NCBI GenBank assembly: GCA_965223155.1
Contig: CBDCVR010000013.1
Coordinates: forward strand, 800,001-864,000
Direction: 5' to 3'
DNA from: Candidatus Multivoradales bacterium
Lineage (GTDB): Bacteria; Acidobacteriota; Thermoanaerobaculia; Multivoradales; JAHEKO01
DNA: 64,000 nt
Positions 1-53,550 of this stretch are shown piece after piece. Numbering within the stretch: the first letter of the stretch is position 1; each line of letters starts with the position of its first letter. The position numbers were made by a program, and so were the translations under genes. Under the pieces are notes generated by a model. That model saw only the letters and a program-made list of their open reading frames with translations, had not been told where the DNA came from and searched no databases.

Positions 1-459
1 GTCGAGCGCATTCTGGACGAGACCGGACTCGATCCGGAGCGCCTGGATCTCGAGCTCACCGAGCGCGGTGTCACGCTGGACGACGCCCGCTCGGCGGCAC
101 ACCTCCAACAGCTCCGGACCCGGGGCGTCCGGATCGCTATCGACGATTTCGGTACCGGCAATTCAGCGCTGTCCTACCTCAAGGCGTTTCCGCTCGACCT
201 CTTGAAGATCGACCGGTCGTTCGTGCGCGGCATCCAGTCCGGTGGCACCGACGCAGCGATCATCTCGGCGGTGATCGCAATGGCGCACCGGTTGGGCTTC
301 GAGGTGGTGGCCGAGGGGCTCGAATCCGAGGCCCAGCTTCGGTTTCTGGCCGCCGAGCGCTGTGACTACGTCCAGGGTTTTCTCTTCGCCAAACCGCTGC
401 CGGCTGAGGAATTCAGTAGGATGTGCCGGAGCGGCGGTTTCTCGACCCTCCGCCGCTAG
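1..459 (+). CDS. EAL-domain c-di-GMP phosphodiesterase, C-terminal part (5' end outside the window)
   Basis: Frame 1 is open from base 1: LELTE...IAIDDFGTGNSALSYLKAFPLDLLKIDRSF...VVAEGLE...QGFLFAKP, the canonical EAL motifs. Confidence 0.93.
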   Translation, partial: VERILDETGLDPERLDLELTERGVTLDDARSAAHLQQLRTRGVRIAIDDFGTGNSALSYLKAFPLDLLKIDRSFVRGIQSGGTDAAIISAVIAMAHRLGFEVVAEGLESEAQLRFLAAERCDYVQGFLFAKPLPAEEFSRMCRSGGFSTLRR

Positions 460-473
460 CCTCTAGGAACCTC

Positions 474-3400
474 ATGCCTCGACACCTACGCTGGAGCCGC
501 TGGGCGGCGACGCTCGTCCTCCTGGCCCTGGCGACCGCCGCCAGCGCCCAGGAACGGAGGATTCCATTCGACCACGTTGGCCTGCAGGAGGGGCTGCCTC
601 ACAGCACCGTCAACGCCATCGTCCAGGACGATCTCGGCTTTGTCTGGTTGGGGACCCAGGACGGCCTCGTGCACTGGGACGGCAACGCGTTCACCGCCTA
701 CCGCCACGAGCCGGGCAACCAGGGATCGCTTTCCAATAACTGGGTCTGGACCATCCTCAAGGACAGCACGGGCCGCCTCTGGATCGGCACCAATGAAGGC
801 GGCCTCAATCTCTGGGAGCCGGCGACTCGCAGCTTCGTCCAGTACCGAAACGACGAGATGGACCCCGCTTCGCTCTCCAACAACCGGGTCCGGGCCCTAC
901 TGGAGGACCGAAATGGGCGCATCTGGGTCGGGACCGAATCCGGCCTCAACGTCTTCGATCCGATAGCCGGCCGTTTCGACCGCTATTTCCACGATCCGTC
1001 GAATCCGGACAGCCTGTCGCACAATCAGATCCGCACGATCTTCCAGGACCGCCGCGGCTCGATCTGGGTCGGCACCAACGGAGGCGGCCTGGATCGCTTG
1101 GATGACGCCGGTGGCGTCTTTACGCACTTCCGGCACGATCCGGACGATCCGGCCAGCCTGAGCCGCGACCGAGTCCGGGTGGTCTTCGAGGACCGGTCCG
1201 ACCAGCTCTGGGTCGGAACCTATGAAGGCGGCCTCAACCGCTTCGACCCCGCAACCGGCGCCTTCACTCGCTTCGCCGAGGAGCCGGGCCGGAGCGGCAG
1301 CCTGCTGGGCAACCGGGTGACTTCGATTCACCAGGACTCGAACGGCGTCCTCTGGGTCGGCACCTTCAGCGGCCTCAACGAATGGCTCCCCGAGCGTCAG
1401 GCGTTCACCCGCTACGCTCACAACCCGGCCGATCCCGCCAGCCTGAGCGACAACCGGGTCATGACCATCTTTCAAGATCGGGGCGGCGTGCTCTGGGTCG
1501 GCACTCAGGGCGGGATCAGCAAGTGGAACGCCGTAACCGGATCGTTTTCCGGCTTCCGGCACGACCCGGCTGCCCCCGATCGCAGCCTGATCAGCAACAC
1601 GGTCAACGCCCTGGCCGAAGACGCTCAAGGCCGGCTTTGGATCGGCACCTACGAGGGCCTGGACGTTCTCGATCGCGGCACCGGCACCGTGACCCACCAC
1701 CTGCGCGACGACGCCGTGCCCGGAAGGCTGCGCGACGACCGGGTCATGTCGCTCCACGTCGATCGCGGAGGCACGCTCTGGGTCGGCACCTTCGAAGGGG
1801 GATTGCACCGGCGACGAGCGGACGGCCGTTTCCGCAACTACCGGCACGATCCCGACGACCCAGCCAGCCTCAGCCGGGACGCGGTAACCGCGATCTTGGA
1901 AGATAGTCAGGGGGTGGTCTGGGCCGGCACCTACGGCGGCGGCCTCAACCGAGTCAAGGCAGACGGCTCAGGATTCATCCGCTACCGCAACGATCCCGAC
2001 AACGTCACGAGCATCGGCAACGACAAGGTGCTGGCTCTCCTCGAGGCCAGCGACGGGGCCCTCTGGGTCGGCACGGACGGCGGCGGACTCAGCCGGCTGG
2101 ACCGGCGCCAGGGCACCTTCACCCGGTACCGCAGCAACTCGGATGCGGAGTCCTCCCTGGGGGCCGACACGATCTTCTCGCTCGCGGAGAGCTCAGACGG
2201 GACCCTGTGGATCGGCACCCAGGGCGGCGGCCTCAGCCGGTGGCTCAAGCAGGACCGCATCGCAAACCGGGTCCGTTTCAAGACCTACACCACCAGCGAC
2301 GGTCTGCCCAACGACGTCGTCTACGCGATCCTGGAGGACGAGAGCGGCTCGCTCTGGCTGAGCACCAACGACGGCCTGGCCCGTTTTGACCCCGCCACCG
2401 AGACCTTCCGCAAGTACGGCACGACCCACGGGCTGCTCAGCACCGAGTTCAACTTCGGCGCCTTTCTCAAGACTCGTGACGGCGAGATGCTCTTCGGCAG
2501 CGACCAGGGCGTGAACTTCTTCCAGCCGTCCCGGATCCACGCCAACGACCACGCTCCTCCGGTGGTCCTGACCTCGTTTCTCAAGTTCAACCAGGAGGAA
2601 CGGCTCGAGATCCCGACGCCCGAGCTGCGCGAGCTCTACCTGACCCACAAGGACTACGTCGTGTCCTTCGAGTTCGCCGCCCTCGATTTCTCGGCTCCCG
2701 AGCGCAACAGCTACGCCTACATGCTGGAGGGGTTTGATACCGGTTGGAACGAAGTCGGGAACCTGAACCGCGCCACCTACACCAATCTGGACCCCGGCAG
2801 GTACACCTTCCGGGTCAAGGCCAGCAACAACGACGATCTCTGGAACGAGAACGGGGTGGCGCTGGCGATCAACGTGGCACCCCCTCCGTGGCGAGCCTGG
2901 TGGGCCTATCTGGCCTACCTGGCCGCGGCCCTGGCGGTCCTGCTGGCCGTGGTTCGCCGGCAGTCCGCGATCCGTGTGCGTGAAATCCAGCAACGCCGTG
3001 AGCTGGAGGACCAGGTCGCCCTGCGCACCACTGAGCTCGCCGAGCGAAACCAGGAGTTGGAAAGCGCCATCGACCGGCTCGAGCACGCCAGCGTCACCGA
3101 CGCGCTGACCGGGCTCCGCAATCGCCGCTACCTGGTCAACAACATCGACGCCGATCTGGCGCTGGTGGACCGGCACCACGAGAACCTGAAGCGCCGGCCC
3201 AAGGTCGCGGCTGAGGGACCGCCACCGGACTTTCTCTTCCTGCTGTTCGACCTGGATGGATTCAAGCAGGTCAACGACACCTACGGGCACGCCGCCGGCG
3301 ATCTCATCCTGCTCCAAGTGACCGAGATCCTGCGCGGCGCCTGCCGCGACGCCGACACCGTCATCCGTTGGGGCGGAGACGAATTCCTGATCGTCGCGCG

Positions 3401-3785
3401 CAACGCCACTCCCAAGACCGCCGAAGACCTGGCCGAGCGGATCCGCGCCGGCATCGCCGGCCATCGTTTCGAGCTGGGTCCCGAGACCTCGGTCGAGCTG
3501 AGCTGCTCGATCGGCTTCGCCTCGTATCCCTTTCTGCGAAAGTTCCCGCGTGCGTTCACCTGGGAACAGGTGGTTGCCGTCGCCGACCGCGGTTTGTACT
3601 TCGCCAAGAAAAGCTGCCGCAATGCTTGGGCCGGAATCTCCGAGAACCACCGGGTGGACACCGTCCACCCGTCCTCGCTGCTCCACCAGATTAACCACGA
3701 GTTGGAGCAGTTGGTCCAGCTCGAAGTCGTCGAGCTCAGGACCTCGATCGAAGACGAGGCGGAGCTCGTCTGGGGCTGGACCTAG
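474..3785 (+). CDS. Membrane-anchored diguanylate cyclase with periplasmic beta-propeller (Reg_prop repeats) and Y_Y_Y sensor
   Basis: Signal peptide; many 'D..G.LWVGT.GGL' repeats; YTNLDPGRYTFRVKASN; PPPWRAWWAY TM segment; DLDGFKQVNDTYGH...RDAD-TVIRW-GGDEF (intact A-site and RxxD I-site). ATG 474 preferred over the track start at 423. Confidence 0.92.
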   Translation: MPRHLRWSRWAATLVLLALATAASAQERRIPFDHVGLQEGLPHSTVNAIVQDDLGFVWLGTQDGLVHWDGNAFTAYRHEPGNQGSLSNNWVWTILKDSTGRLWIGTNEGGLNLWEPATRSFVQYRNDEMDPASLSNNRVRALLEDRNGRIWVGTESGLNVFDPIAGRFDRYFHDPSNPDSLSHNQIRTIFQDRRGSIWVGTNGGGLDRLDDAGGVFTHFRHDPDDPASLSRDRVRVVFEDRSDQLWVGTYEGGLNRFDPATGAFTRFAEEPGRSGSLLGNRVTSIHQDSNGVLWVGTFSGLNEWLPERQAFTRYAHNPADPASLSDNRVMTIFQDRGGVLWVGTQGGISKWNAVTGSFSGFRHDPAAPDRSLISNTVNALAEDAQGRLWIGTYEGLDVLDRGTGTVTHHLRDDAVPGRLRDDRVMSLHVDRGGTLWVGTFEGGLHRRRADGRFRNYRHDPDDPASLSRDAVTAILEDSQGVVWAGTYGGGLNRVKADGSGFIRYRNDPDNVTSIGNDKVLALLEASDGALWVGTDGGGLSRLDRRQGTFTRYRSNSDAESSLGADTIFSLAESSDGTLWIGTQGGGLSRWLKQDRIANRVRFKTYTTSDGLPNDVVYAILEDESGSLWLSTNDGLARFDPATETFRKYGTTHGLLSTEFNFGAFLKTRDGEMLFGSDQGVNFFQPSRIHANDHAPPVVLTSFLKFNQEERLEIPTPELRELYLTHKDYVVSFEFAALDFSAPERNSYAYMLEGFDTGWNEVGNLNRATYTNLDPGRYTFRVKASNNDDLWNENGVALAINVAPPPWRAWWAYLAYLAAALAVLLAVVRRQSAIRVREIQQRRELEDQVALRTTELAERNQELESAIDRLEHASVTDALTGLRNRRYLVNNIDADLALVDRHHENLKRRPKVAAEGPPPDFLFLLFDLDGFKQVNDTYGHAAGDLILLQVTEILRGACRDADTVIRWGGDEFLIVARNATPKTAEDLAERIRAGIAGHRFELGPETSVELSCSIGFASYPFLRKFPRAFTWEQVVAVADRGLYFAKKSCRNAWAGISENHRVDTVHPSSLLHQINHELEQLVQLEVVELRTSIEDEAELVWGWT

Positions 3786-4708
3786 CCCCCGGTCTCTTTA
3801 CCGCCAATCCGGTCGACAATGGCTCCGACCGCCTCGGGCAGCGCGTCGAGACTGTCGGGCAGCACGAGCTCCACGGCGTCAACGGCGGGGGCGGCTCCAG
3901 TGAAGAGATCGAAGGCCGCCGCCCTGAGCCATTGGGCAAAGAGACTCGATGCCGTGAGGTTGGCGAGAATCCGGGTCACGGCCTCACTTGGCGCCAGCGG
4001 CCGGACCGTGGGCGCCGACACGTCGGGCCTGCGTCGCGGAAAGACGATCGCGCCGAGCGGCGCGCTGGCCGGTTCGAGCGGCTGCTGGTCCGGCCCCATC
4101 TTGAGCTGGGGAAATCGCGGCAAGACCTTCAGCCCCGGCCCGGCCCCCGCCAGAATCACCTGATCGTCGGCCAACCTCGTGTGCCCCGCAGCTTCGGCAA
4201 CACGCGCGAATGTGGACTTCCCCGCCCCGCTCTCGCCGGCTGCGGCGACCACCCGATCCCCGATCTGAAAGGCCGAGGCGTGGAGGCTCCAGCGCCCACA
4301 GGCGGCCAGGGCCAGGGTCAGACCGGGGCCGAGCGCGGCGTACCGAGCCTGATCCTCGGACCGGGGGCCCTCGATCGTGAGATCCACCGCAGGAGCCGAG
4401 AAGCGGCATCGGAGCCACTGCCGACCCTCGAGCTCCAGCCTGGCCCCCTCGTCGCCTGTGTGGATCAGGTACCGGGTCCTCCGGCCGGCCAGCCAGTTAC
4501 GCCCCGCGAGGGTCTCCAGCATGGACCGGTGCTTCCCCGCCGGAGCGTCCGGCTTCGAAAACTCGACGCCGAACAGCGTGAACGGCGTCAGCTCGCGCAC
4601 CGTGCCTGTGGCGCTCACGGTCAGTCCGGCCAGGCCGTAGTGGCGCCAGCGCGGCTCTCCGTCTTCCTGAAACCAGAGACGTACCGTCTCTCCGTCCGGC
4701 ACCTTCAT
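3782..4708 (-). CDS. HPr-kinase-like P-loop kinase (lasso/RiPP-associated kinase), cluster 1
   Basis: LHASA...GESGAGKST...LADD motifs; ATG at 4708 overlaps the cyclase stop (TGATG). Confidence 0.8.
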   Translation of the reverse strand: MKVPDGETVRLWFQEDGEPRWRHYGLAGLTVSATGTVRELTPFTLFGVEFSKPDAPAGKHRSMLETLAGRNWLAGRRTRYLIHTGDEGARLELEGRQWLRCRFSAPAVDLTIEGPRSEDQARYAALGPGLTLALAACGRWSLHASAFQIGDRVVAAAGESGAGKSTFARVAEAAGHTRLADDQVILAGAGPGLKVLPRFPQLKMGPDQQPLEPASAPLGAIVFPRRRPDVSAPTVRPLAPSEAVTRILANLTASSLFAQWLRAAAFDLFTGAAPAVDAVELVLPDSLDALPEAVGAIVDRIGGKETGG

Positions 4709-6378
4709 CAAGCCAGCTCCCAACCGTGACGGCCGCGCCAGAGCTCGAAGGACGCGCATCGCCAGAGCAGCGCCTTTTCCGCCTCCGACGAACGGGGCCC
4801 AACGGCCTCGACGGCTTCAGGGCGGACGAACTCCGGCCAAACCGCCCGCCTCCGGCCCAGCAGCTCGGCAATCGGTCCGGACTCGCGTTCGAAGACTCCC
4901 CGATCGAAGAGCGGCGAAAGATTGGCGGTGGTCTGGTTCCGGACCACCGCGTCCGGCAAGCGGCTGGTCATCGCCCGGCGCATCAGATCCTTGGCGCAAC
5001 CTGGCCTGGCGATCAGAAAGCTGGGGAGCGCCAGCAGGAGCTCGACGAGATCCGGGTCGAGATACGGCGAGACTACACGGACCCCGGCGTGGGACGCGTG
5101 CACCGCCTCGATCGGAAGTCCCCTACGCTCGAGATCCAGATAGGGCCGCACCAAGCGCGCGCGCGCGCCGGTGTCCTGCCCATCCTCCGGTGCCCGAGCC
5201 GATCCCGAGCTCGCGGCCACCCCCGGGCGGAGCCAAGCCCGGCTCGCGCGCGATGCAACCCGAGCCATGCGCCCGGCCGGACTTCCGATGCGGCCGATGG
5301 CTCCCAGCGCCTGACGCGGCCCCCGGCCACGGGCGATCTGGAGGATCGCGGCGGCGGCGCGGGCGAAGTGTCCGTGGCGCACGAGGTCCCGTACCAGGAG
5401 CTGCTGTACGCCGCGGTAGAGAGCGTCGGCCGGTCCCCCGTTCCAAAGCACGCCGACGCCCGCTTCGGCCGCCCTCCGGTACAGGCGCTGCTTGAGGCCC
5501 CGATAGGGATTCTCCTCGGGATGGCCCGGTTCGAGGCCGTAGGCGTCGGGGTCGGCAAGGGGCCAGCAGTCATCTCCGGAGACGCGCACGGCCGTGAGCC
5601 TAAGGCTCTCCACGACCGCGTCGATACGCTCCCTTTCGTCGCACGTCCTCAGCTCGTCGAAGATCCAGGAAGCAGCCACCGGCCGGCGCCCGGCCTGCTC
5701 AGCGTACTCGGCGGGCGCGGCAGGTTCGAACCGGGCCGCGGCGGCCGCCGCCAGGGCTCCTGAGTCGATTCCCCCGCTCAGCATCAGGCCAAGCTCACCG
5801 TCCGGCGGCGTCCAGCGCGCCGCCGCCGACTCGAGGGCCTTCCAGAGGCGCTCGGCGGCCTCTTCCGGCGAAAGGTCGCTCAGCGCGGCCGAGTCGGGCG
5901 GCTGGCCGCACGTCTCCAGCCGGCCGGGCTCGTCCGCCAGACCGCTCGGATCCGGCCGTGGGCCAGGCGGCGATCCGACGGGAAGCCGCACCCGGCAGCC
6001 GGCCGGCACCTCGAAGACTCCTCGGAAATGCGTCCGGCCCACCGTGGGGCTCTCGAGCGCGAAGAAACGAGCGAGCTGACCTCGATCCAAACCCGGCCGC
6101 ACCGGCAGGGTCGCCAGCAAGTCACTCAGGACCGACGACGAATAGAGCCGGCCCCCGGCCCGCGCGTAGTAGAGCCCCTCGGCACCGCTAGCGCCTCGCG
6201 CCAGGGTAACTCCTTCACCGTCCGGGTCCAGCCGAGTCCCGGTTTCGGAAAGAGCGCCGGGTTCCCGAAGCCGCCGCCGCCCGGGATGCGGCTCGGAGGC
6301 GGACGTGTCGACCCCGAAGCCATTCCTGGCCTGCATCCGGGTACCGGTGGCGAGGTCGAACACCGCCGAGCGCGACAT
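4708..6378 (-). CDS. Asparagine-synthetase-like lasso cyclase (macrolactam synthetase), cluster 1
   Basis: PP-loop LSGGIDS; NGGPADALY acidic motif; SPYLDPDLVELLLALP...KDLMRRAM; no N-terminal catalytic Cys; directly downstream of a lasso-type precursor. Confidence 0.82.
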   Translation of the reverse strand: MSRSAVFDLATGTRMQARNGFGVDTSASEPHPGRRRLREPGALSETGTRLDPDGEGVTLARGASGAEGLYYARAGGRLYSSSVLSDLLATLPVRPGLDRGQLARFFALESPTVGRTHFRGVFEVPAGCRVRLPVGSPPGPRPDPSGLADEPGRLETCGQPPDSAALSDLSPEEAAERLWKALESAAARWTPPDGELGLMLSGGIDSGALAAAAAARFEPAAPAEYAEQAGRRPVAASWIFDELRTCDERERIDAVVESLRLTAVRVSGDDCWPLADPDAYGLEPGHPEENPYRGLKQRLYRRAAEAGVGVLWNGGPADALYRGVQQLLVRDLVRHGHFARAAAAILQIARGRGPRQALGAIGRIGSPAGRMARVASRASRAWLRPGVAASSGSARAPEDGQDTGARARLVRPYLDLERRGLPIEAVHASHAGVRVVSPYLDPDLVELLLALPSFLIARPGCAKDLMRRAMTSRLPDAVVRNQTTANLSPLFDRGVFERESGPIAELLGRRRAVWPEFVRPEAVEAVGPRSSEAEKALLWRCASFELWRGRHGWELA

Positions 6379-6437
6379 CGTGCCCGAGCCTACCTTGCGC
6401 CTAGGTCCGACCGGACCTGTCGCGACCTGCCAGCCCG

Positions 6438-6644
6438 CTAGCCCTGGAACGGAGGGTTGAAGGCAAACGGATTGCCCGAGTCACCGACGCCGGGAGAGCC
6501 GCCCAAGGTCAGGCTGGCCAGCGAGCCGTAGCGCACGAGAGTCGGCTGGCGATAGGGCCTGCGGCCTTCGAGCGGCCGAAGTTCCGCCCCAGTCCGGTGA
6601 GCCGATTGCCGGCGCACCCGCGAACGCTCGCTGGCCTTGTCCAT
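6438..6644 (-). CDS. Lasso-type RiPP precursor A1 (68 aa); predicted core GGSPGVGDSGNPFAFNPPFQG
   Basis: MDKASERS...RRPYRQPTLVRYGSLASLTL|GGSPGVGDSG...: YxxPxL motif, leader Gly, Thr(-2), Gly1, Asp8. ATG at 6644 overlaps the stop of the 2754-aa gene; it is the 3' end of track ORF 6438..7142. Confidence 0.88.
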   Translation of the reverse strand: MDKASERSRVRRQSAHRTGAELRPLEGRRPYRQPTLVRYGSLASLTLGGSPGVGDSGNPFAFNPPFQG

Positions 6645-9600
6645 CAGGGCACGATTGTCATCGTCGGGTCGCCGAGAAGCGTCCATCCGAGAATAACATC
6701 CAAGCGACCCGGATCGCTCTCGGCCAGATCGCGCTTGGCCTCGACCACCGCGCCGCCAAGGCGAGCACCGGGGCTCGCCAGGCGGTCGAACACGCGACGT
6801 CCCAAACGCTGCTCGGAGAGGGCCTCGGTCAAGGTCGCGGCACCCAAAACCGCCGCCGCGCCCGTATCGGCCTCCAGCAGAAGCCGGTTGCCCAAGGTCT
6901 CGTAGGTCGGCAGCACGTGGTAGGTGTTCCAGCAGCCCCACTGGGTCACGACGGTCGGCTTGCCGCGGTTCTCGAGCCGATCGACGTCCGACGAGCGGAA
7001 GAGGCCGCTGAAGCTCCAGACGGTCAGGCCGGAGTGCCCAAAGTAGCTGGTGATTGCCGGGCCCTGGCCGATCTCGCGCACGAGCGCCTCGCGGGCATCT
7101 GTAAGCGGCATCTCGTCCAGATAGACCCGCTCGAGGGACCAATCGGAACCCAGGAGCGCCCCCATGGCGTCGCTCTTCTGTCCGAACGAGAACCCAGTCG
7201 GCGCGTCCCGCTTGTCCGCGGCTAGAACCGCGGTCAGCTCGCCGCCGTCGTAGAGCAGCGTCTTGTCGATCACCGCGGCCAGCTCGTCGAGAGTCCGCAC
7301 CGGCCAGCGGCCCACGGCCACCTCGGGGATGAGGTCCCCGTCCACGTCGCCGTACAGGGGATCCACCGGCGCGTAGCGGACGATCGCGTCGGTCTGGAGA
7401 TACGGAGTCGGGACGAAGCTCATCGAGCCGACACCCAGATGATCGAAGTAGTCGTAGGTGTCGCCGCCCACCAGCAGCAGATACCGTGTCCCGAGGCTCT
7501 TGTACGCGTCGCGGACGTAGCTTCGAATCGCCTCCGGATCCACAATGCCATTACTGTAGGCAGCGTAGACGTCGTCCACGTCGACGGTCCGGACCGCCAA
7601 GCCTTCACCGCGGCGACGGCTCTCCCAGCGGCCCAGGCCGTCCAGGAAGTCGGCGTGCGCGATCACGAGCACGTCGGCGGGCGCGTCGCCGAGATCGCTG
7701 GCGGCGCGAGCGGCCTCGATCGCCGGAACGCGGATCGAGCCGGCTCCGACCGTCCAGTACTCGGCATCGGCGGCACCCAGTCCCGAGAACGCAGCAGCGT
7801 AGCCTCCCAAACCGTCGGCCACCGTCGCCGCCTCGAGACGCGCCAGCGTGCCGGCGGTTCGTCCGTAGGCCACGACGTCGGTCGAAGCAAAGCCGCGCAC
7901 CAGGAAACTCCGGCCGCCGGACGCGAAGCTCAAAGCGTCGGCCCGGGCCACGAAGTCTCTCGGGTACCTGACCGTCAGGTGGTCGTAGTTAACAAGATCG
8001 AACTGGGCGCCCGTGTCATGCGGCAATAGCAGCCTCATCGTGTTGCCGGCCGGCGCCAGGAGGGCGTCGCTCAAGACCGCCGAGATCTCGGGTTGGTAGA
8101 GCCCGTCGAACCATTCCTCGGCAACCAGGCCGCCGTTGACCTCGACGACCAGATGGTGGTCGGGTGCCTGCGGCAGGTTCGTGACGCCGTAGGCCGACAC
8201 CTCGAGGGCCACGTCGGCGGCTCCGGGCAGCCAGTTGTCGAGGTCAAACGTCACCGACGTCTCGACAGGCTTCGTAGTCGCGAGCAGGCGCCGGTCGTAC
8301 CACGGATCACCGGTCGGCGAGGCGAAGTTGTACTGGCGCTCGACCTCGACCTTGTGGGTCTCGAGGTAGTAGGGCTCAGCGGCGCCCGCGCCGGAGTACG
8401 GCTCGATCTCCGCCCGCAGCGCCCGGTCCCGATTCACGCTCAGTCGATAGACGTTGGTCCGGGTGTAGAGGCTGTCGTCGACCGGCTCGCCCACGAACTC
8501 GAGAGACGAGCCGGGACCGAACGGACCCTCTCCGGACACCCAGAAGGGGACCGGCTCACCGCCGCTGGCCAGGCTCAGCCAGTCTCCTCGAATTCCCTGG
8601 AGGCGCACTCCCGCGGCTGCCAGATCTTCGTAGGTGACCCGGTAGATACCCGCCTCGGAAACCTTGAAAGTCGCCAGCTCGTCACCACGGCCCGGCCGGC
8701 CCGAATTCGAGCCACTCGAGCCTCCGTTCGAGCGCAACGCCCTGCCGCCGAACTCGATCGCGCCTCCGAGATCGGCCGAACCGGCCTCGGGCAGCACGCC
8801 GGCGTTCCGCCGCGCGGCCTTGCCCGCTTTCCGGCGCGCCTTGGCGTCCCGGATCTTGGCCCAGGCAACAGGTTGCGCGGAAACCACCTCCGACCCGGCG
8901 GCTTCATCCGCGTAGAACGGACCGTGGTGTCGAATGACGCCGTTGATATCCACGTCCTCCAGAAGGAAGGTATCGCCTGCGACTCCGGCGGCCGAGAACT
9001 CGTACACCTGCGGCTCGAGCGAGTCCACGACGTGGGACGGGATGAGCTCGTCGTTCAAGCGGCGCAAGCCGTCATCTTCGAGCGCGTAAAGATTGAAGCC
9101 GAGATTCCCGACCTCGGTCGAGGTCATCCAGCGGAAGTCCACCGATCCGCGTCCGTGGGCTTCGAAGTAGGCCAGAGTCACCGGCGTCGTGGTCACGCCC
9201 CCGTTCCAGAAGCCGAAGTCCTGATCGGTGACGTTCGAAGAGACCAGAGTCACCGGCTGGACCCCGCCGGTCCCGGCTTGGGTGGTCTGGACGAAGCCGT
9301 CGACCAAGGTGCCCTCGCTGTCGGCGTACACCAGATAGTCGCCCGGCGGCAGGTTGTCGAAGCTGTAGGTACCGTCGATCGCGGTCACGGTGGTCGCGAC
9401 CAGGGGATCGTCCGGATCGATGACTCCGTCGCCGTCCAGATCCTGATAGAGGTACACGGTTACCGAGGGCACCACCGGCTCGAGTCCGGTTCCCGCGAAG
9501 GAACCGTTGGCATCGCCGTCCTCGAACACGGTTCCGGAGATCGAGAGCGCGCCGGTCGGAAGGACGAAGCCGAAGTCCGCGGTGAAGTTGGACGAGTTCA

Positions 9601-12600
9601 AGGTCAGGGCGTACGGGTTGGTCTGATTGTTGTCGTCCTGGCCGGGGTTCGGACCCAGAACGGTAGCGGTCAGGCCAGCAGTCACGCCGTATTCATCGGT
9701 GAGCCGCGCGATGTAGTCGCCGGAGGGAATGCCCTCGCAGTAGTACTCGCCGGCCTCATCCGTCGTCTCGGTCCGGATCAGGTTGTCGGTACCGTCGATA
9801 TCCAGGATGCCGTTGCCGTTGACATCGTGCCAGCATTCCAGTGTCACGCCCGAGATCGGCGGCTCGCCAACCTGATAGACGCCGTCCAGATTGGTATCGA
9901 ACCACACCAGATTGCCAATCGAGCCCAGCCCGGCCTCGGGGCCGTAGCCAAAGTCGGCGGTTGCCGTAGAGCCCCCAGCGACCGAGACCGAGGTTTCCTC
10001 GTCGCAAGTCGAGCAGGTCCCGGACTCGTCGGGATCGCCCGTCTGCTGCAAGCCCACCAGAACGCTGTCGACGTCGGTGACCTCTACGGTGTAGGTGCCG
10101 TCGGGCACGCCGGTGAACTCGTAGTCGCCGTTTGCATCGGTGGTCGTCGTGGCGATGATGTTGCCCGAGCCATCGACCAGGTTGACGGTCACGCCGACGA
10201 TGCCGCCCTCGCTTCCACCTTCGACGCCGTCGTTGTCGCCATCGTTCCAGATCGTGCCCTCGATCGTATTGACGACGCCCCCGTCGTAGCCGAAGTCCAG
10301 CGTCGGCACCACGTCGCCATCGGCCAGGGTCAGTAGGTAGGTATCGTCACCGCCGTTGTTGGTCGGCGTGGTCGTGTAGCCGAGCGCGGCAATGCCGGCC
10401 GAGTCCACGGTCACGATGTAGTCGCCGGGCAGGAGGCCCGTGGCCAGCCAGGTCCCATCCGGGTTGGTGGTCACCGTGCAACCGGTCGGACACGACGGAC
10501 CCTGGATCAAGATGTCGATGCCGCCGATACCGACCTCGCCTTCGTCCTGGATGCCATCGCCGTCGGCGTCGTACCAGACGGTGTCGCCGATGGTGGCCGT
10601 GCCCGCCGTCGGCACGTAGCCGAAGTCGGCGTCGTTGTAGTCCTCGCCGTCCGAAAGCGCAATCGCTGTCGTCGTGTCGCCGCCGGTCGAGGAGGTCAGG
10701 CCGGTGGGCGCGGTCGGAACGTCCACGTAGTAGATGCCCGAGTCCAGCCCGCCAAAATCGTACTGACCGTTGGCGTTGGTGGTCGTCGAGCCCACGAAGA
10801 CGTCATCGGCGGTGCCGACGATGCCGTCCGGACCGGCGTCATAAAGATCCACCTGCACCCCGGAGATACCGCTCTCGTCGGGGCCCTGGACGCCGTCGCC
10901 ATTGGTGTCCAGAAAGACCGTGTCGCCGATCGAGGCCGTGCCGGTGTCCTGGACATAGCCGAAGTCCACGTCGTCAATGTCGGAGCCGGCCAGGGTCACG
11001 TCCAGCGCGTCGAGTCCGCTGGTCAAGGTGTAGCCGTCGAGCACGTTGTCGGTATCGGTCACCACCACCGTGTAGTCACCGTCGGGAAGATCCGGAAAGC
11101 TGTAGTCCCCGTTCGAATCGGTGACAGTGGTCGCGATGACCGCGCCGGTGTCGTCCAGGAGCTCGAGGGTGACGCCGCCGATTCCGGCTTCGGTGCCGTC
11201 CTGGATCCCGTCGGTGTCGGTATCGTTGAACACGGTTCCGAAAACGTCGGCAAGAGACGTGTCCTGGTAGCCGTACTCGATTCCGGTCACGCTCTCGCCC
11301 GCGTTCAGGGTGACCGCAGTCGTGGTCGTACCGTCGCAGACCGTGCAGGTTCCAGACTCGTCGGGGTCGCCGGTCTGGGAGCCGCTGGGCGCCGCGCCCA
11401 CCGTCACCACGTAGTTGTCGGGAGCCAGGTCACCGAAGGAGTAGCTGCCATCAGCCGCGGTAGTGGTCTGGGCCACAAAGTTGGGGCTCGACGGATCGCA
11501 GGGACTCGCGGGATCCGTACAGAGATAGATCGGCACGCCCTCGATTCCCGCCTCTTCCGGGTCGTGGACGCCATCGCCGTCGGCGTCGCTCCACACGGTT
11601 CCGGACAGAGTGTCCGGCTCGTTGTAGCCGAAGCTGGGCGTGCCGCCGTCGGACGGAGCGTTGAGGACGTCTCCGCCCGAGACCACGACGTCCTCGACGC
11701 CTCCGGTCGCGGTGGTCTCGGTAAAGCCGTCGAGCTCGCTCGCCGTATCCGTGACCTGAAGCTGGTAGACGCCGTCGGTCACGCCGGTGAACGACACTTC
11801 ACCGTTCTCATCCGTGATCGCGGTCGCGATCGTGGTGTCGTCGGCAGCGTTGGCCCCACCGCAAATGCCGTCGGCGCCGCAGTCGACCAGATCCACGGTG
11901 ACACCCGGGATCATCTCTTCGCCGGGATCCAGCACGCCGTCTCCATCCGCGTCATACCAGACCGCGTCGCTGACCTCGTAGCTCGTTGACGTATCGAAGC
12001 CAAAGTCGACGTCACTGATGATGTCGTTCTCCAGTACCGAGATCGGATCGCTCTGAGTAGGACTGGTCTCGCAGCCGGCTACCGGGTCGGGACTGCAAAA
12101 CGCCACCAGCTCGGGGTCGGTCGTGTCTACGACGACGATGTACTCACCGGGCGGCACGTCGGTCAGAAGATAGGAGCCGTCCGGTCCGGTGACCGCGGTG
12201 ATCGGCTGCCCGCCGGAGTCAAGGACCGGCGTGCCGTCGGGATTCAAGAGCTGCACGGTTACACCGGCGATGCCCACCTCTCCGGGATCCTGAATCCCAT
12301 CCTGATCGGCGTCGCTCCACACGGTCCCTTCGATGACCGCGGTACCTGAATCCGGGACGTACCCGAAGTCTGCCGTTTCCGTTTCTCCGGCCGCCAGCGT
12401 CAGGGTGCCCGAGTTGCCCGCCACGTTGCCCGGCGATTCTTCCAAGCCATCCAGGTCGCCACCGGTCAGTTCGGCCGGTTCGACCTGGGTCTGATAGTCG
12501 CCCGCCGACAGATCCGGGAAGCTGTAGTCGCCGGCGGCGTCGGTCACCGCGGTGGCAATGGCGGTCGAGGCGTCGCAGACGGGCTCGGAAGCCTCACAGA

Positions 12601-14908
12601 GATAGACCGTAACGCCATCGATCCCGGGCTCGCCGATGTCATGGACACCGTCACCGTCGGTATCGAGCCAGACGGTCCCTTCGATCGCCGAACACGTGCT
12701 GCCGCCATTGCCGATCGTGTCCAGATTGTTGCCAGGATTCGGATCGTTGTTGTCGGCCGTGACATACGCCACGTTGTCAAATTCGCAAGCCCGCGCCACC
12801 GGATTGCCGGCGACGTCCCCGTCCGAGTCACTGTTGTTGGACGTATCCTGATCCGCCTCATCGGCGCTCACGGTGACCACATTGTCGAACGGTCCCGAGG
12901 CATCGATCGTCGCAATCACAGTGATCACTTCGCTAGCGCCGGACGCAAGGCTGGGAATCGTACAGGGCAAGGCACCGCAACTCGCGCTCGAGACGCTGGT
13001 GATCGTGAGATTGCTCGCGACGTCGGTGACCAGCACGTTCGTGGCCAGAGAGGGACCGTTGTTGGTCACCACCATCGAGTAGGTCACGGTCTGGCCGGAA
13101 ACGTAGGGGCCGGCGGTGATCAGGGTCTTGGTAACCGCGACGTCGGCCCCGACCGGATTGACGGCGTCGTCCGAGATCGGGTCAATCCCGGTCGCCGAGG
13201 CCTCGGCCGTGTTGGTCAGCTCGGTGATCGCCGGGTCCAGCGGATCGTCTACCAGAACCTGAAACGTCACGGTCAGAGTCTCGCCTGGAGCCAGCGTGAA
13301 ACCGTCTCCCGACTCGACCAGGCTCGGCGGTGTGCCGTCCACCAGGTCCATGTTCGTCCCACCCGGTACGTTGTCTTTGGTCGTCGTGCCCGAAGCACCG
13401 TGGGCTTCGATGACGATGTTGTCGAAGTAGACGTCTTCCGAAGAGCTGGTCGTACCCGACCGCAAGCGGATCACGGTGCTCGCATTCCCGGCCGTGATCG
13501 ACACCGACTCCGTCCCCGACTGGTTGTCGTCCTCCTCTGGACACACCTGGGTCCCGTCACGGCTGAACACCGTCGAGAACGTCCCTCCTCCATTGGTCGA
13601 GACCTGGACGTCCAGAAAATCGCTCGACTCCCAGCCGCTGCTGGTGTCGTTGCACTCCCAGGTGAAAGACAACGTGGCGCTGGTGTAGGCGCTCAGGTCT
13701 GCCGACCTGGAAGCCGTGCCTGACGAGCCACCGTTCATGAACACCGCATTGGACAGACCTCCGGGAGAGGTCGTCTCGATGCTCGAGCTATTGAACGTCC
13801 AGTTGCCCGACCAGCCGGTTCCTCCAGTGCCGTCGCCGCTCGAGAAGTCGTCGCTGATGGTGGCCGAGCTGTCCACCGGACCCGTCGCCGCCGTGCTCTG
13901 CGCCACGTAGGTGACCCCGGTCGGCAGCGTGTCGGTCACCACCACGTCGTTGACGTTACCGGGACCGCTGTTGGTCACCTCGATCGTGTAGGTGATCGTC
14001 TCCCCAGGCTGAACCGAACCACTTGGACTCGCCGTCTTGACGATCGACAGGGCCGGTGGGACGTCCTCGACGCAAAGCGCGAACCCGGACAGACGAACCG
14101 CGTGTCCGTTGCTCTCCCCCGTACCGCTCTCGTTGGTCGCATCGTCCGGACCGTTGTTGTATGTGAAGTTGAGCGTGTCGAACGCCGCACCGCTGGACAC
14201 GGTCAACGTTCCGGCCGCATCCCCTGGAGAGAGGTTCCCATTGACGCCGGGCGCCACAATCGCCGTCGCCGTCTGACCCGAAACGGTCATGTTGCTGCCG
14301 CCGCTCAAGGTCAGGGGAACATTGCTGCCCCCGTCCGAGGCCGAAAAGGTCAGCTGATCCTGAAACGACTCTTCGGGCTCCGGCGCCTGAGCCCCGAACC
14401 CGACGTCATCGATGTCACCAAGCGAGAAGTCGTTCAGGATCACCGACTTCGAGAACGTGAAATCGAACCCGATGGTGTCGCTCACCGAGTTGACGCTGGC
14501 CATCTTCACAGTCAGGAAGCCCGAACCGAACGCCCCGTTGGTCTCGGTCTTCGTCGTCGTCGGATTGTCGCAGCCATTCGATAGCGCCGCCGGACACGAG
14601 AAGTTGTCGTCGTAGTTCATCCCGTCCGGATCCTGCAGCGTCACCGTCACGTCCAGCGTGTTCGGGTTGCCGTAGGCGTCCGTGTAGGCGACGGTGTAGA
14701 TCTCCGACGCCCCAGTCGTGTTGTTAGCGATCGTCCACTCGTTGCCCGTACCCGGAGACGTTGACCAGTCGAAGGTCGCCGCCGCCGTCCCCGACGGGCA
14801 GCTCTGGGCTACCGCTTGGGCCGGAGCCAGCAACCAGCCGAGAGCAAGAGCCGGCGCCAGGCGCAGCGCCAGGCCCGGCCATCGCCTCATCGACCAAAGG
14901 TCCGTCAT
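6644..14908 (-). CDS. Giant secreted protein (2754 aa): DUF11 domains, about 10 SdrD-B-like Ca-binding repeats, Ig-like 'PVTL' domain, C-terminal C25 (gingipain/PorU-like) cysteine peptidase
   Basis: Signal peptide ...AQAVAQ; TYTIEVTNSGP DUF11 motifs; repeats 'IGDTVWxDxDGDG...DFGY'; FKVSEAGIYRVTYEDL; YLLLVGGDTYDY; DGDLIPEVAVGRWPV; His in YFGHSG and Cys in QWGCWN; WTLLGDP terminus. Confidence 0.88.
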   Translation of the reverse strand: MTDLWSMRRWPGLALRLAPALALGWLLAPAQAVAQSCPSGTAAATFDWSTSPGTGNEWTIANNTTGASEIYTVAYTDAYGNPNTLDVTVTLQDPDGMNYDDNFSCPAALSNGCDNPTTTKTETNGAFGSGFLTVKMASVNSVSDTIGFDFTFSKSVILNDFSLGDIDDVGFGAQAPEPEESFQDQLTFSASDGGSNVPLTLSGGSNMTVSGQTATAIVAPGVNGNLSPGDAAGTLTVSSGAAFDTLNFTYNNGPDDATNESGTGESNGHAVRLSGFALCVEDVPPALSIVKTASPSGSVQPGETITYTIEVTNSGPGNVNDVVVTDTLPTGVTYVAQSTAATGPVDSSATISDDFSSGDGTGGTGWSGNWTFNSSSIETTSPGGLSNAVFMNGGSSGTASRSADLSAYTSATLSFTWECNDTSSGWESSDFLDVQVSTNGGGTFSTVFSRDGTQVCPEEDDNQSGTESVSITAGNASTVIRLRSGTTSSSEDVYFDNIVIEAHGASGTTTKDNVPGGTNMDLVDGTPPSLVESGDGFTLAPGETLTVTFQVLVDDPLDPAITELTNTAEASATGIDPISDDAVNPVGADVAVTKTLITAGPYVSGQTVTYSMVVTNNGPSLATNVLVTDVASNLTITSVSSASCGALPCTIPSLASGASEVITVIATIDASGPFDNVVTVSADEADQDTSNNSDSDGDVAGNPVARACEFDNVAYVTADNNDPNPGNNLDTIGNGGSTCSAIEGTVWLDTDGDGVHDIGEPGIDGVTVYLCEASEPVCDASTAIATAVTDAAGDYSFPDLSAGDYQTQVEPAELTGGDLDGLEESPGNVAGNSGTLTLAAGETETADFGYVPDSGTAVIEGTVWSDADQDGIQDPGEVGIAGVTVQLLNPDGTPVLDSGGQPITAVTGPDGSYLLTDVPPGEYIVVVDTTDPELVAFCSPDPVAGCETSPTQSDPISVLENDIISDVDFGFDTSTSYEVSDAVWYDADGDGVLDPGEEMIPGVTVDLVDCGADGICGGANAADDTTIATAITDENGEVSFTGVTDGVYQLQVTDTASELDGFTETTATGGVEDVVVSGGDVLNAPSDGGTPSFGYNEPDTLSGTVWSDADGDGVHDPEEAGIEGVPIYLCTDPASPCDPSSPNFVAQTTTAADGSYSFGDLAPDNYVVTVGAAPSGSQTGDPDESGTCTVCDGTTTTAVTLNAGESVTGIEYGYQDTSLADVFGTVFNDTDTDGIQDGTEAGIGGVTLELLDDTGAVIATTVTDSNGDYSFPDLPDGDYTVVVTDTDNVLDGYTLTSGLDALDVTLAGSDIDDVDFGYVQDTGTASIGDTVFLDTNGDGVQGPDESGISGVQVDLYDAGPDGIVGTADDVFVGSTTTNANGQYDFGGLDSGIYYVDVPTAPTGLTSSTGGDTTTAIALSDGEDYNDADFGYVPTAGTATIGDTVWYDADGDGIQDEGEVGIGGIDILIQGPSCPTGCTVTTNPDGTWLATGLLPGDYIVTVDSAGIAALGYTTTPTNNGGDDTYLLTLADGDVVPTLDFGYDGGVVNTIEGTIWNDGDNDGVEGGSEGGIVGVTVNLVDGSGNIIATTTTDANGDYEFTGVPDGTYTVEVTDVDSVLVGLQQTGDPDESGTCSTCDEETSVSVAGGSTATADFGYGPEAGLGSIGNLVWFDTNLDGVYQVGEPPISGVTLECWHDVNGNGILDIDGTDNLIRTETTDEAGEYYCEGIPSGDYIARLTDEYGVTAGLTATVLGPNPGQDDNNQTNPYALTLNSSNFTADFGFVLPTGALSISGTVFEDGDANGSFAGTGLEPVVPSVTVYLYQDLDGDGVIDPDDPLVATTVTAIDGTYSFDNLPPGDYLVYADSEGTLVDGFVQTTQAGTGGVQPVTLVSSNVTDQDFGFWNGGVTTTPVTLAYFEAHGRGSVDFRWMTSTEVGNLGFNLYALEDDGLRRLNDELIPSHVVDSLEPQVYEFSAAGVAGDTFLLEDVDINGVIRHHGPFYADEAAGSEVVSAQPVAWAKIRDAKARRKAGKAARRNAGVLPEAGSADLGGAIEFGGRALRSNGGSSGSNSGRPGRGDELATFKVSEAGIYRVTYEDLAAAGVRLQGIRGDWLSLASGGEPVPFWVSGEGPFGPGSSLEFVGEPVDDSLYTRTNVYRLSVNRDRALRAEIEPYSGAGAAEPYYLETHKVEVERQYNFASPTGDPWYDRRLLATTKPVETSVTFDLDNWLPGAADVALEVSAYGVTNLPQAPDHHLVVEVNGGLVAEEWFDGLYQPEISAVLSDALLAPAGNTMRLLLPHDTGAQFDLVNYDHLTVRYPRDFVARADALSFASGGRSFLVRGFASTDVVAYGRTAGTLARLEAATVADGLGGYAAAFSGLGAADAEYWTVGAGSIRVPAIEAARAASDLGDAPADVLVIAHADFLDGLGRWESRRRGEGLAVRTVDVDDVYAAYSNGIVDPEAIRSYVRDAYKSLGTRYLLLVGGDTYDYFDHLGVGSMSFVPTPYLQTDAIVRYAPVDPLYGDVDGDLIPEVAVGRWPVRTLDELAAVIDKTLLYDGGELTAVLAADKRDAPTGFSFGQKSDAMGALLGSDWSLERVYLDEMPLTDAREALVREIGQGPAITSYFGHSGLTVWSFSGLFRSSDVDRLENRGKPTVVTQWGCWNTYHVLPTYETLGNRLLLEADTGAAAVLGAATLTEALSEQRLGRRVFDRLASPGARLGGAVVEAKRDLAESDPGRLDVILGWTLLGDPTMTIVP
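13152..13957. repeat. ~800-bp near-identical direct repeat, copy A (copy B at 15164..15969)
   Basis: Constant offset of 2012 nt; long identical stretches, e.g. 13381 'tcgtcgtgcccgaagcaccg' = 15393. Confidence 0.9.
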
Positions 14909-16944
14909 TGGATAGTCGCCGTCACAGTGAGAACGACGGTCGCTCCGGCACTAAGATTCGGGATCACACAAGGAAGGCTGGCGCAGCCTCCGCCCGACAC
15001 CGAGTCGATCGTGAGGTTGGTCGGAGCGTCATAAACGGTCACGTTGGTCGCGTCCGCCGGGCCGGCGTTACTGACAATCAACTCGTAGGTAATCGTCTGG
15101 CTTGAGGAATAGGGCCCGGCCGTAACGAGGTTCTTGACGACGCTGACGTCGGCATCCGTCGCCACCGGATTGACGGCATCGTCGGAGATCGGATCGATCC
15201 CGGTCGCCGAGGCCTCGGCCGTGTTGGTCAGCTCGGTGATCGCCGGGTCCAGCGGATCGTCTACCAGGACCTGAAACGTCACGGTCAGAGTCTCGCCGGG
15301 AGCCAGCGCGAAATCGTCTCCCGACTCGACCAGGCTCGGCGGTGTGCCGTCCACCAGGTCCGCGTTCGTCCCACCCGGTACGTTGTCCTTGGTCGTCGTG
15401 CCCGAAGCACCGTGGGCTTCGATGACGATGTTGTCGAAGTAGACGTCTTCCGAAGAGCTGGTCGTACCCGACCGCAAGCGGATCACGGTGCTCGCATTCC
15501 CGGCCGAGATCGACACCGACTCCGTCCCCGACTGGTTGTCGTCCTCCTCTGGACACACCTGGGTCCCGTCACGGCTGAACACCGTCGAGAACGTCCCTCC
15601 TCCATTGGTCGAGACCTGGACGTCCAGAAAATCGCTCGACTCCCAGCCGCTGCTGGTGTCGTTGCACTCCCAGGTGAAAGACAACGTGGCGCTCGTGTAG
15701 GCGCTCAGGTCTGCCGACCTGGAAGCCGTGCCTGACGAGCCACCGTTCATGAACACCGCATTGGACAGACCTCCGGGAGAGGTCGTCTCGATGCTCGAGC
15801 TATTGAACGTCCAGTTGCCCGACCAGCCGGTTCCTCCAGTGCCGTCGCCGCTCGAGAAGTCGTCGCTGATGGTGGCCGAGCTGTCCACCGGACCCGTCGC
15901 CACCGTGCTCTGCGCCACGTAGGTGACCCCGGTCGGCAGCGTGTCGGTCACCACTACGTCGTTGACGTTGCCGGGGCCGCTGTTGATTACCTCGATCGTG
16001 TACGTGATCGTCTCACCAGGCTGAACCAAACCGCTCGGACCCGCCGTCTTGACGATCGATAGGGCCGGTGGGGTGTCCTGGACGCAAAGCACCTGAAACC
16101 CGGAGATGCGGACCGCGTGCCCGTTACTCTCCCCCGTGCCGCTCGAGTCCGCCGTGTCGTCCGGACCATTCGAATACTCGAAGCTGAACGTGTCGAAAAG
16201 GCCCGTCGATGACGCCGTCAGTGTGCCCGCGGCGTCGTCGGGAGTCAGGTTGCCATTGACCCCCGCCACCACGATCGCCGTCGCCGTCTGTCCCGAGAGC
16301 GATATGTTCGAGCCGCCCGAAAGGGTCAAAGGAACGTTCGCACCACCGGCCGAGGCCGTCAGTGTTACCTGATCCTGAAAGGACTCCTCTGGCTCTGGCG
16401 CCTGCGCGCCGACGCCCACGTCGTCGATGTCTCCGATCGTGAAGTCGCTCATCGACACCAGCTTCGAGAAGGAGAAGTCGAAACCTACCGTGTCCGTCAC
16501 CGAGTTCACACTCGCCATGCCCACGGTCAAAAAGCCCGAACCGTACGACCCGTTTGTCTGGGTGTCAAAGCCTGGGTCGCAGCCGTTCGACAAGGCCGCC
16601 GGACACGCGAAGTTGGTGTCGAAATTCATCGCATCCGGATCCTGGAGCGCCACCGTGACGTCCAGCGTGTTCGGATTGCCGTAGGCGTCGGTGTAGCCGA
16701 TCGAATAGACCTGCGAGTTGCCGTCCGTATCGTTACTCGACAGCCACTCGTTGCCCGTACCAGGGGTACTCGACCAGTCGAACGTCGCCGCCGCCGTGCC
16801 CGACGGGCAGCCTTGGGCTACGACATCTGAGCCCGGGACCAGTCCTAGTACGGCCCCAAGCAGGAGGCTCGAGACCACACGCCGCCGCCGGCCCGAGGAG
16901 CCGGGCGGATTCTTGGGAGGTACACCGGGGGAAAGTTCGTTCAT
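14905..16944 (-). CDS. Secreted DUF11-domain protein, paralog of the N-terminal ~700 aa of the giant protein
   Basis: Signal peptide then QGCPSGTAAATFDWSS..., colinear with the giant protein; its stop overlaps the giant's ATG (ATGA); ATG 16944 preferred. Confidence 0.82.
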   Translation of the reverse strand: MNELSPGVPPKNPPGSSGRRRRVVSSLLLGAVLGLVPGSDVVAQGCPSGTAAATFDWSSTPGTGNEWLSSNDTDGNSQVYSIGYTDAYGNPNTLDVTVALQDPDAMNFDTNFACPAALSNGCDPGFDTQTNGSYGSGFLTVGMASVNSVTDTVGFDFSFSKLVSMSDFTIGDIDDVGVGAQAPEPEESFQDQVTLTASAGGANVPLTLSGGSNISLSGQTATAIVVAGVNGNLTPDDAAGTLTASSTGLFDTFSFEYSNGPDDTADSSGTGESNGHAVRISGFQVLCVQDTPPALSIVKTAGPSGLVQPGETITYTIEVINSGPGNVNDVVVTDTLPTGVTYVAQSTVATGPVDSSATISDDFSSGDGTGGTGWSGNWTFNSSSIETTSPGGLSNAVFMNGGSSGTASRSADLSAYTSATLSFTWECNDTSSGWESSDFLDVQVSTNGGGTFSTVFSRDGTQVCPEEDDNQSGTESVSISAGNASTVIRLRSGTTSSSEDVYFDNIVIEAHGASGTTTKDNVPGGTNADLVDGTPPSLVESGDDFALAPGETLTVTFQVLVDDPLDPAITELTNTAEASATGIDPISDDAVNPVATDADVSVVKNLVTAGPYSSSQTITYELIVSNAGPADATNVTVYDAPTNLTIDSVSGGGCASLPCVIPNLSAGATVVLTVTATIQ
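15164..15969. repeat. ~800-bp near-identical direct repeat, copy B
   Basis: Matches 13152..13957; both encode the SATISDDFSSG...ISDDAVNPV segment. Confidence 0.9.
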
Positions 16945-17280
16945 CGGAGATCGCCTGGGTCGGCTTATGGTCGGGCCGACCGAACTATACCTGTAATCAT
17001 GCACCTCAAGTGCCACTCGGGCCCGCAACGTCAAGCTCTTCTATTGCAAGAGTTGCTGCGCAACCCGGGTCGGCCCCGCTACGCCGGCCGGCACTCAGCG
17101 CCCGTCACCTGCCAAAATTCGTCACCTACCGGCGGCCGCCCGGGCTCGCCGCACCGGACATGCTTCCCGATCCGCTCGTCTCCGGACCCGGGTAACTTTC
17201 CCTACGGAAGCCGACCCGAGCGCCTGGGATGCTACCGGCCTCTGGCGCCGGTCCGCGGCTCGTGGGCGGCTAGTGGGCTG

Positions 17281-51480: not shown

Positions 51481-51536
51481 CTGCGAAGCCTATCTCGGAA
51501 GCCTTGGTTCCTTCCGCCGAAGCGCCTAGAAACGGG

Positions 51537-53288: not shown

Positions 53289-53297
53289 GACCCGAAA

Positions 53298-53465: not shown

Positions 53466-53550
53466 TTGCCGGCTTCTAGTGCGGAGGAGCGCCGCCGAAT
53501 TCGAGTCGAGCAACGATACACCGATCTGGCCTGATGTGCAAAGGAAACGA

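Follow-up and report, generated by a model that had tools for sequence, protein, structure and literature searches.

Here, we describe the pairing of a lasso-type peptide cassette with a giant surface adhesin that ends in a C25 peptidase, as found in a stretch of 64,000 nucleotides (the window) from a Candidatus Multivoradales bacterium of the Acidobacteriota (assembly GCA_965223155.1, contig CBDCVR010000013.1, positions 800,001 to 864,000 of the forward strand). The locus consists of five open reading frames on the minus strand, all of which lie at the coordinates that an initial annotation had claimed for them:

14905-16944, minus strand: gene of a DUF11 protein (679 amino acids; two DUF11 domains, its own signal peptide, no protease)
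6644-14908, minus strand: giant adhesin-C25 gene (2754 amino acids, secreted; 10 SdrD_B stretches, DUF11)
6438-6644, minus strand: lasso precursor gene (68 amino acids; a 47-residue leader and a 21-residue core)
4708-6378, minus strand: gene of an Asn-synthetase-like macrolactam cyclase of the C25-linked clade
3782-4708, minus strand: gene of an HPr-kinase-like precursor kinase (308 amino acids)

The closest relatives of the locus are found in the Thermoanaerobaculia (Acidobacteriota), and contigs from public runs, possibly from the source sample, match 3600-6925 and 13913-15226 with zero differences. The adhesin-C25 gene and its lasso-type cassette very probably form a conserved, dedicated pairing. 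The initial annotation had staked its proposal on this linkage being present in relatives, and it is. For a first survey 60 relatives were searched for C25, leader and cyclase, and 40 loci were fetched, from which alignments were built. Across the class, 171 genomes that are at least 90% complete were sampled; 13 carry the C25 clade (cut-off E<=1e-85) and 20 have a cyclase match. The 13 best cyclases (526-824 bits) lie in the same 13 genomes as the C25 clade and adjacent to the C25 gene in all of them, and 7 of these 13 genomes lay outside the training alignments. The remaining seven cyclase matches (307-426 bits) come from genomes without the C25 clade; the 500-bit line between the groups was drawn after the gap was seen, and the loci of the weaker matches were not fetched.

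A scan of GTDB confirmed 268 C25 loci, and the following counts refer to the best 80 of them, 15 of which repeat earlier loci. A precursor is present at 54, a cyclase at 50, a kinase at 44, a RiPP (a ribosomally made peptide with post-translational modifications) recognition element (RRE) at 19, a B2 peptidase at 18 and a PF14907-like enzyme at 8. Precursor or cyclase accompany the C25 gene at 55 loci, all five core genes at 17, and the three-gene form seen here at 23. The 25 unlinked loci comprise 12 with less than 2.5 kb downstream, 6 cut off at their upstream edge and a further 7 with flanking sequence to either side. Linkage is seen in Acidobacteriota, Chloroflexota, Myxococcota and Pseudomonadota, with many gene orders. 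In the class of an Anaerolineae carrier 5 of 201 genomes have the C25 clade, and at all four loci fetched there (the carrier's own excluded) precursor and cyclase are adjacent; three are new and one repeats L130. A metagenome scan with the cyclase alignment, which is an unspecific pattern, returned 53 loci; most encode generic AsnB proteins or lasso cyclases of other kinds, many lie on short contigs, and one of the 53 had a C25 gene (L185, of this family).

Could this be an ordinary lasso cluster that hitchhikes in variable surface islands, so that the link reflects common ancestry only? Kin are indeed not independent, and the correlation between C25 and cyclase distances (rho 0.61, 48 loci) is confounded by descent and expected from vertical inheritance alone. 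However, the adjacency outlasts many gene orders, inversions and a likely cross-phylum transfer, and co-occurrence for cyclases above 500 bits is 13 of 13, against zero among the remaining 158 genomes. We regard this explanation as largely refuted and very improbable. In trees, all built with FastTree, the acidobacterial locus L045 falls inside the same fully supported Chloroflexota clade for C25 and for cyclase, which suggests that the two genes were transferred jointly across phyla. The main clade of the 109-row cyclase tree has 55 of 63 rows adjacent to C25. In the lasso-linked C25 clade, 35 of 101 rows lack a cassette in the stretch available.

Within this pairing it is the precursor that stays with the protease. 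Each of the two C25 genes in genome G003 has a precursor to itself (L026, L027), and at L031 and L034 the precursor sits between two C25 genes, apart from the cyclase. At L051 precursor, C25 and kinase lie together and the cyclase on a separate contig. The precursor thus remains next to C25 where other genes have moved or are absent (L027, L031, L034, L051). A control set of 40 further C25 loci from relatives contained 16 of a 'MTCYSAP' type, none with cassette genes, 15 of a 'GHGG' type, 8 of them with a radical S-adenosylmethionine (radical-SAM) enzyme, an RRE, a kinase and a three-Cys precursor, and 9 extra copies of the lasso-linked clade. In a 135-row C25 tree the lasso-linked, radical-SAM-linked and cassette-free types form separate clades. 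The sister system (L150, L152, L162, L164, L167, L168, L177, L178) shares with the lasso system a C25 giant with a TPVTL-like domain, an RRE, a kinase and a YxxP precursor beside C25. It differs in its three-Cys core ending in Ser, its radical-SAM/SPASM enzyme, a frequent S26-like peptidase and its separate C25 clade. Its tandem C25 pairs (L164, L178) again have their own precursor after each C25. Lasso as well as radical-SAM C25 cassettes repeatedly have as a neighbour a TPR-like membrane protein of exopolysaccharide loci, about 545 residues long (L031, L032, L034, L098, L150, L162), which also occurs in the host genome (C15:321637-323292).

The precursor matches the NCBIfam lasso leader model NF033521 with 22.6 bits, above the cut-off of 19, and its leader follows the pattern YxxPxL...G...T(-2)L. 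Together with a core start of G/A/S/C and D/E at positions 7-9, the YxxPxL and Thr(-2) leader places it among lasso precursors. The 21-residue core GGSPGVGDSGNPFAFNPPFQG (6441-6503) has a predicted G1-D8 ring with Ser3 as putative phosphorylation site; the calculated mass of the cyclic core is 1986.89 Da, and 2066.85 Da with phosphate. Among 64 precursors at C25 loci the ring consensus GxS/TPGxG[DE]S is almost fixed, with a variable tail behind it: G1 occurs in 58, S/T3 in 61, P4 in 43, G5 in 56, G7 in 50, D/E8 in 62, S/T9 in 61 and G10 in 49. Leader position -2 is Thr in 57, Ala in 4, Cys in 2 and Val in 1. A C-terminal Ser is present in 2 of the 64 cores, so a paeninodin-type phosphate acceptor is not a feature of the family, whereas the conserved Ser/Thr3 and the HPr-kinase-like motif agree with the Bsf type, apart from the Ile/Val at -2 of that type. 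In the host leader (6504-6554, minus strand) G-S-L stands in place of the G-D-L-R of same-genus orthologues; it resembles the leader of a second cassette in the window and may reflect a shared RRE. A divergent sub-type (L049, L050, L056) has long-branch C25 and cyclase proteins and FGGSQxxDSG cores with Ser at position 4, and the most divergent C25s (L049, L050) come with the most divergent cores and cyclases.

The cyclase scores above the cut-off for PF00733 (Asn_synthase) and retains its SGGIDS, DER and GGPAD motifs. Its top NCBIfam match is the lasso cyclase NF033535, at 84.7 bits far below the cut-off of 525; this model matches 23 of 23 family cyclases (best E 1.6e-112). A PDB sequence search had no solved lasso cyclase among its matches. 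The kinase matches HprK_rel_A weakly (E 0.002), but its H...GxxGxGKS...DD motif, as defined for BsfK (PMC10368454), is intact, as it is in 61 of 79 kinases by regular expression. It is unlikely, and would be compatible with other readings, that cyclase and kinase of this host are decaying or changed in role while the family is functional. The family profile matches the cyclase only from position 113 of 609, its branch in the cyclase tree is long, and a rough ratio of nonsynonymous to synonymous substitution rates is 0.5-0.7 for cyclase and kinase versus about 0.3 for C25, with synonymous changes near saturation. Against decay, the reading frames are unbroken, no invariant catalytic column has been lost, GC content at third codon positions is 0.81-0.83, and the erosion of the N-terminal domain (about 60 residues shorter than in most relatives) is partly common to the genus.

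No RRE or B2 gene lies at this locus, in contrast to lasso clusters that carry both. The lack of RRE and B2 implied by the initial annotation does not extend to the system, as both occur in cis at 17 of the 80 GTDB loci and both elsewhere in the host genome. The host has six PqqD matches, one B2, six PF14907 proteins and one C25. Its B2 is isolated on contig C15 and retains Cys and His; it does not group with the B2s of C25-linked loci and is therefore assigned to the cassette by elimination only. The best candidate for a B1 protein acting in trans lies inside the window:

53551-53880, minus strand: PqqD/RRE of the second cassette, a putative B1 in trans

Of all host RREs, this one has the highest score against those of C25-linked loci. 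It belongs to a second lasso-type cassette (50437-53880, minus strand) with PqqD, a 55-residue precursor, a cyclase of another clade and a kinase with GD instead of DD, and without B2; its core is GGGGLPSDGLGSDPPASGT (G1-D8). Beside it, two SdrD-B/DUF7467 surface proteins (55106-59059 and 59874 to the window end, minus strand) have long near-identical repeat blocks in common, and the upstream one of the two contains reelin-like and DUF11 domains. A third set of RRE, Asn-synthase and convergent kinase lies at C15:886380-889534, where neither a leader hidden Markov model nor a regular expression found a precursor.

The missing B2 raises the idea that C25 itself serves as leader peptidase. It fits the 23 of the best 80 loci that have precursor, cyclase and kinase but no RRE/B2, and genome G003 (91% complete), which has no B2 match. 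However, B2 lies in cis by C25 at 18 of these loci, and among the genomes with this cyclase type it is clear in 26 of 29, borderline in 2 and absent from 1 (61 genomes searched). C25 is also exported, whereas cyclisation requires ATP, and pseudomycoidin is reported to form without B proteins (PMC6993621). Many relatives have RRE and B2 in cis, and the host genome has both elsewhere, so that we rejected this idea as scarcely credible.

The giant protein starts with a Sec-type signal-peptide-like sequence (judged by eye), followed by a variable passenger of DUF11 and SdrD-B repeats, a TPVTL domain and a PorU-like module with terminal C25. Peptidase_C25 (PF01364) matches residues 2414-2751 (E 5e-60, 204 bits, cut-off 23), and the protein ends exactly at this catalytic domain, with no C-terminal domain (CTD) or other domain behind it. 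The features of this part are:

8890-9190, minus strand: TPVTL domain, an FnIII/Ig-like beta-sandwich with a basic helix, conserved between passenger and protease module
6647-8680, minus strand: PorU-like module, by AlphaFold model and Foldseek
7034-7036, minus strand: catalytic His2625 (GHSG), invariant in 25 aligned relatives
6932-6934, minus strand: catalytic Cys2659 (QWGCW), invariant in 25 aligned relatives

The last 853 residues were modelled with AlphaFold at a confidence (pLDDT) of 87.8. In Foldseek the protease module aligns with PorU of Porphyromonas gingivalis (6za2) over 788 columns (E 3.6e-28), and gingipains follow with only about 380 columns, so that the PorU-like character proposed for the C25 domain is borne out by its fold. 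The module shares the His-Cys dyad with PorU, its top structural match, but only 16-17% identity, and it is fused behind its own adhesin passenger. It may act like PorU, yet it is no PorU of a type IX secretion system (T9SS), because it has no CTD, PorV was not found in the host genome (98.7% complete; a positive control was detected) and the NCBIfam PorU models score below their cut-offs (NF033707 127.6 versus 420; NF052324 93 versus 450). SprA gave no match anywhere, which makes that search uninformative about a T9SS in the host.

In structure searches the TPVTL domain retrieved generic FnIII domains only (best Z 8.9, root mean square deviation 2.8, 93 aligned). It occurs once in the host genome and, in 61 genomes, almost always within C25 proteins. 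Since it is almost confined to C25 proteins, processing of the passenger in cis would be more likely than sorting of other proteins. We also considered the domain as a sorting signal in trans similar to the CTD of T9SS substrates; the generic FnIII matches, the single host copy and the near-constant fusion to C25 leave this unsupported. An Atlas lead (0.79) connects the domain with a Por_Secre_tail cluster. A PorU-type N|G site is present ahead of the domain, but it is too permissive and insufficiently conserved to count. In two Arenicellales loci (L119:8792-11074, L122:8894-11059) passenger plus TPVTL domain and PorU-like module are in separate reading frames, the second with a signal-peptide-like start; a natural split and a sequencing frameshift are both possible. 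The C25 giants of L035 and L036, and in L036 the cyclase too, have several frameshifts, from pseudogenization or assembly error.

The initial annotation had also read the gene overlaps as translational coupling. Stop/start overlaps are indeed present at three of four junctions (ATGA 14905-14908, TGATG 6642-6646, TGATG 4706-4710), and 59 nucleotides separate precursor and cyclase. They are weak evidence, because by our own gene calls a -4/-1 overlap is possible in 465 of 1485 (31%) close co-directional gene pairs of the host genome, and because the overlap between C25 gene and precursor is not kept in three same-genus orthologues (gaps of 12-62 nucleotides). Three overlaps at four junctions have a chance of about 0.09 and are unremarkable. 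A scan of 3500-17600 found no sigma-70-like promoter (1.3 expected) and terminator-like sites no commoner than by chance. The DUF11 gene, which had been counted as part of the system, is a tandem duplicate of the N-terminal 670 residues of the giant (82% identity in amino acids, 84% in nucleotides), and the giants of seven relatives have only local matches of 30-36% to it. By this comparison it is a lineage-specific local duplicate inside the operon and not a conserved member of the system; a fused ancestor of DUF11 gene and giant was considered and rejected. On the plus strand, a beta-propeller/Y_Y_Y sensor fused to GGDEF (423-3785) is convergent with the kinase, with a 4-nucleotide overlap. 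Such a gene lies beside the cassette in nine loci of the family and could tie it to control by cyclic di-GMP.

Our best reading is that the locus is a copy of a conserved mobile module in which a PorU-like peptidase, fused to its own passenger, is paired with a dedicated lasso-type peptide. The pairing in uncultured members of four phyla suggests that this peptide serves surface-protein biology rather than antibiosis. By analogy with Bsf, the peptide is probably a Ser3-phosphorylated G1-D8 lasso-type product whose maturation would draw on an RRE and a B2 encoded in trans. Within the cytoplasm, the kinase together with an RRE (probably the 53.6-kb gene) would phosphorylate Ser3 of the core, the B2 peptidase (probably the single orphan on contig C15) would cut off the leader, and the cyclase would form the G1-D8 ring. 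The giant would be exported by Sec and, if it behaves like PorU, its C25 module may cleave and perhaps re-ligate its own passenger near the TPVTL domain, leading to release or anchoring of the adhesin. The constrained phosphopeptide would exit via an unlinked exporter. Our committed guess, to which we give slightly less than an even chance, is that the peptide is a direct partner of the C25 module, as regulator or substrate: as a ligand it might keep the module latent, activate it or be opened by it, and thereby control adhesin display. We prefer such a direct relation because precursors duplicate with C25 genes and C25 clades sort by peptide chemistry.

Several findings weigh against this proposal. 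Extra C25 copies of the same clade have no cassette within 20 kb at nine of nine such loci, all in genomes with a cassette elsewhere; seven of the best 80 GTDB loci lack a cassette in spite of flanks on both sides; and four cassettes (L028, L033, L042, L056) have real flanks and no adjacent C25. The precursor has no signal peptide, so that peptide and giant start in different compartments, and no exporter lies at the locus or recurs among neighbours at related loci. The second cassette in the window adjoins SdrD-B proteins without C25, as do 4 of 10 related cassettes, which suggests a more general tie to surface loci. The eroded cyclase N-terminus counts here too, and the same-genus identity of 37-40% for cyclase and 31-32% for kinase, versus 61-63% for the C25 module, indicates fast divergence. 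Finally, the mature Bsf lasso peptide is reported never to have been detected (PMC10368454).

Some of these points fit a co-regulated colonisation module without contact between the partners, in which peptide and adhesin are made together for biofilm or surface attachment, with the peptide acting as a signal or as part of the matrix. Cassettes adjoin exopolysaccharide genes at several loci (O-antigen ligase, Wzz, sugar transferase), related cassettes lie next to SdrD-B proteins without C25, and the sensor-GGDEF gene is a recurrent convergent neighbour. A capsule-locus link has been noted in Bacilli (PMC13381572), and a like role has been speculated for paeninodin and for linear polyphosphorylated peptides (LPP). 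However, such a module, which we hold to be possible but rather less likely, leaves unexplained why precursors and C25 genes duplicate one to one and why C25 clades sort by peptide chemistry.

A further option, distinctly unlikely in our view, is that the phospho(glyco)peptide is the acceptor to which the PorU-like enzyme ligates the cut passenger. The peptide would replace the seryl amine of anionic lipopolysaccharide (A-LPS), and its phosphoserine would tether the adhesin to a surface glycan. PorU cleaves and then ligates to amines, and its transpeptidase activity takes glycine, free amino acids and short peptides (PMC4560394, PMC10202324); Gly is first in 58 of 64 cores; 8 of the best 80 loci have a PF14907 enzyme, a homologue of PsmN, which attaches hexose to the phosphate; and the A-LPS route looks unavailable because no PorV was found in the host. 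Yet the macrolactam consumes the alpha-amine, Lys occurs in just 13 of 64 cores, and there is no exporter. The acceptor role would require a non-cyclising Asn-synthetase-like enzyme or attack of C25 on the isopeptide bond. The peptide as a nucleophile ligated by C25, one of the roles first suggested for it, is thus doubtful, as cyclisation blocks the amine.

Among the closest known systems, as judged by its description, is the bsf cluster of Bradymonas sediminis FA350 (BsfA/K/B1/B2/C/D/N; PMC10368454), in which BsfK phosphorylates Ser3 in a predicted G1-D8 ring with help of the RRE. Both have a YxxPxL leader, a predicted G1-D8 ring, Ser/Thr3 in the ring, an HPr-kinase-like enzyme with the same catalytic motif and no C-terminal Ser. 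They differ in Ile(-2) in bsf versus Thr(-2) here (57/64), and the present family has no ABC transporter, an RRE/B2 that is often in trans and an obligate C25-adhesin neighbour. Paeninodin and pseudomycoidin clusters (PMC9266682, PMC6993621) likewise combine precursor, cyclase and kinase with RRE and B2, at times also with a PF14907 enzyme, and are tied to surface-polysaccharide loci, but they phosphorylate a C-terminal Ser, belong to Bacillota and have no C25. LPP (PMC13381572) share the toolkit of RRE, kinase and nucleotidyltransferase and the capsule-locus context, but use an SpI peptidase and an MsbA-like exporter and have no cyclase; the main text of that paper mentions neither C25, gingipain, adhesin nor Acidobacteria. 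In literature searches, whose coverage of subscription journals is poor, no paper was found that connects lasso peptides to C25 or PorU. Lasso peptide and C25 are components of known kinds, while their pairing appears undescribed.

What phosphorylated lasso peptides and their kin do is not known (PMC13381572, PMC9266682). In the family described here the genomic partner is fixed, the ring hardly varies and a candidate target can be named, so that its role can be put to the test with five small genes and a single protease domain. The pairing also points towards a substrate and a setting for C25 enzymes of the PorU-like kind beyond Bacteroidota, and one protease lineage is found paired with two peptide chemistries, lasso and radical-SAM. 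We think it unlikely, but of consequence, that these are T9SS-independent self-sorting surface proteins, in which a PorU-like transpeptidase uses a cross-linked phosphopeptide as covalent anchor or obligatory cofactor. If this were so, a lasso peptide would serve one C25 clade and a radical-SAM peptide the sister clade, and RiPP chemistry would be part of a protein-sorting pathway.

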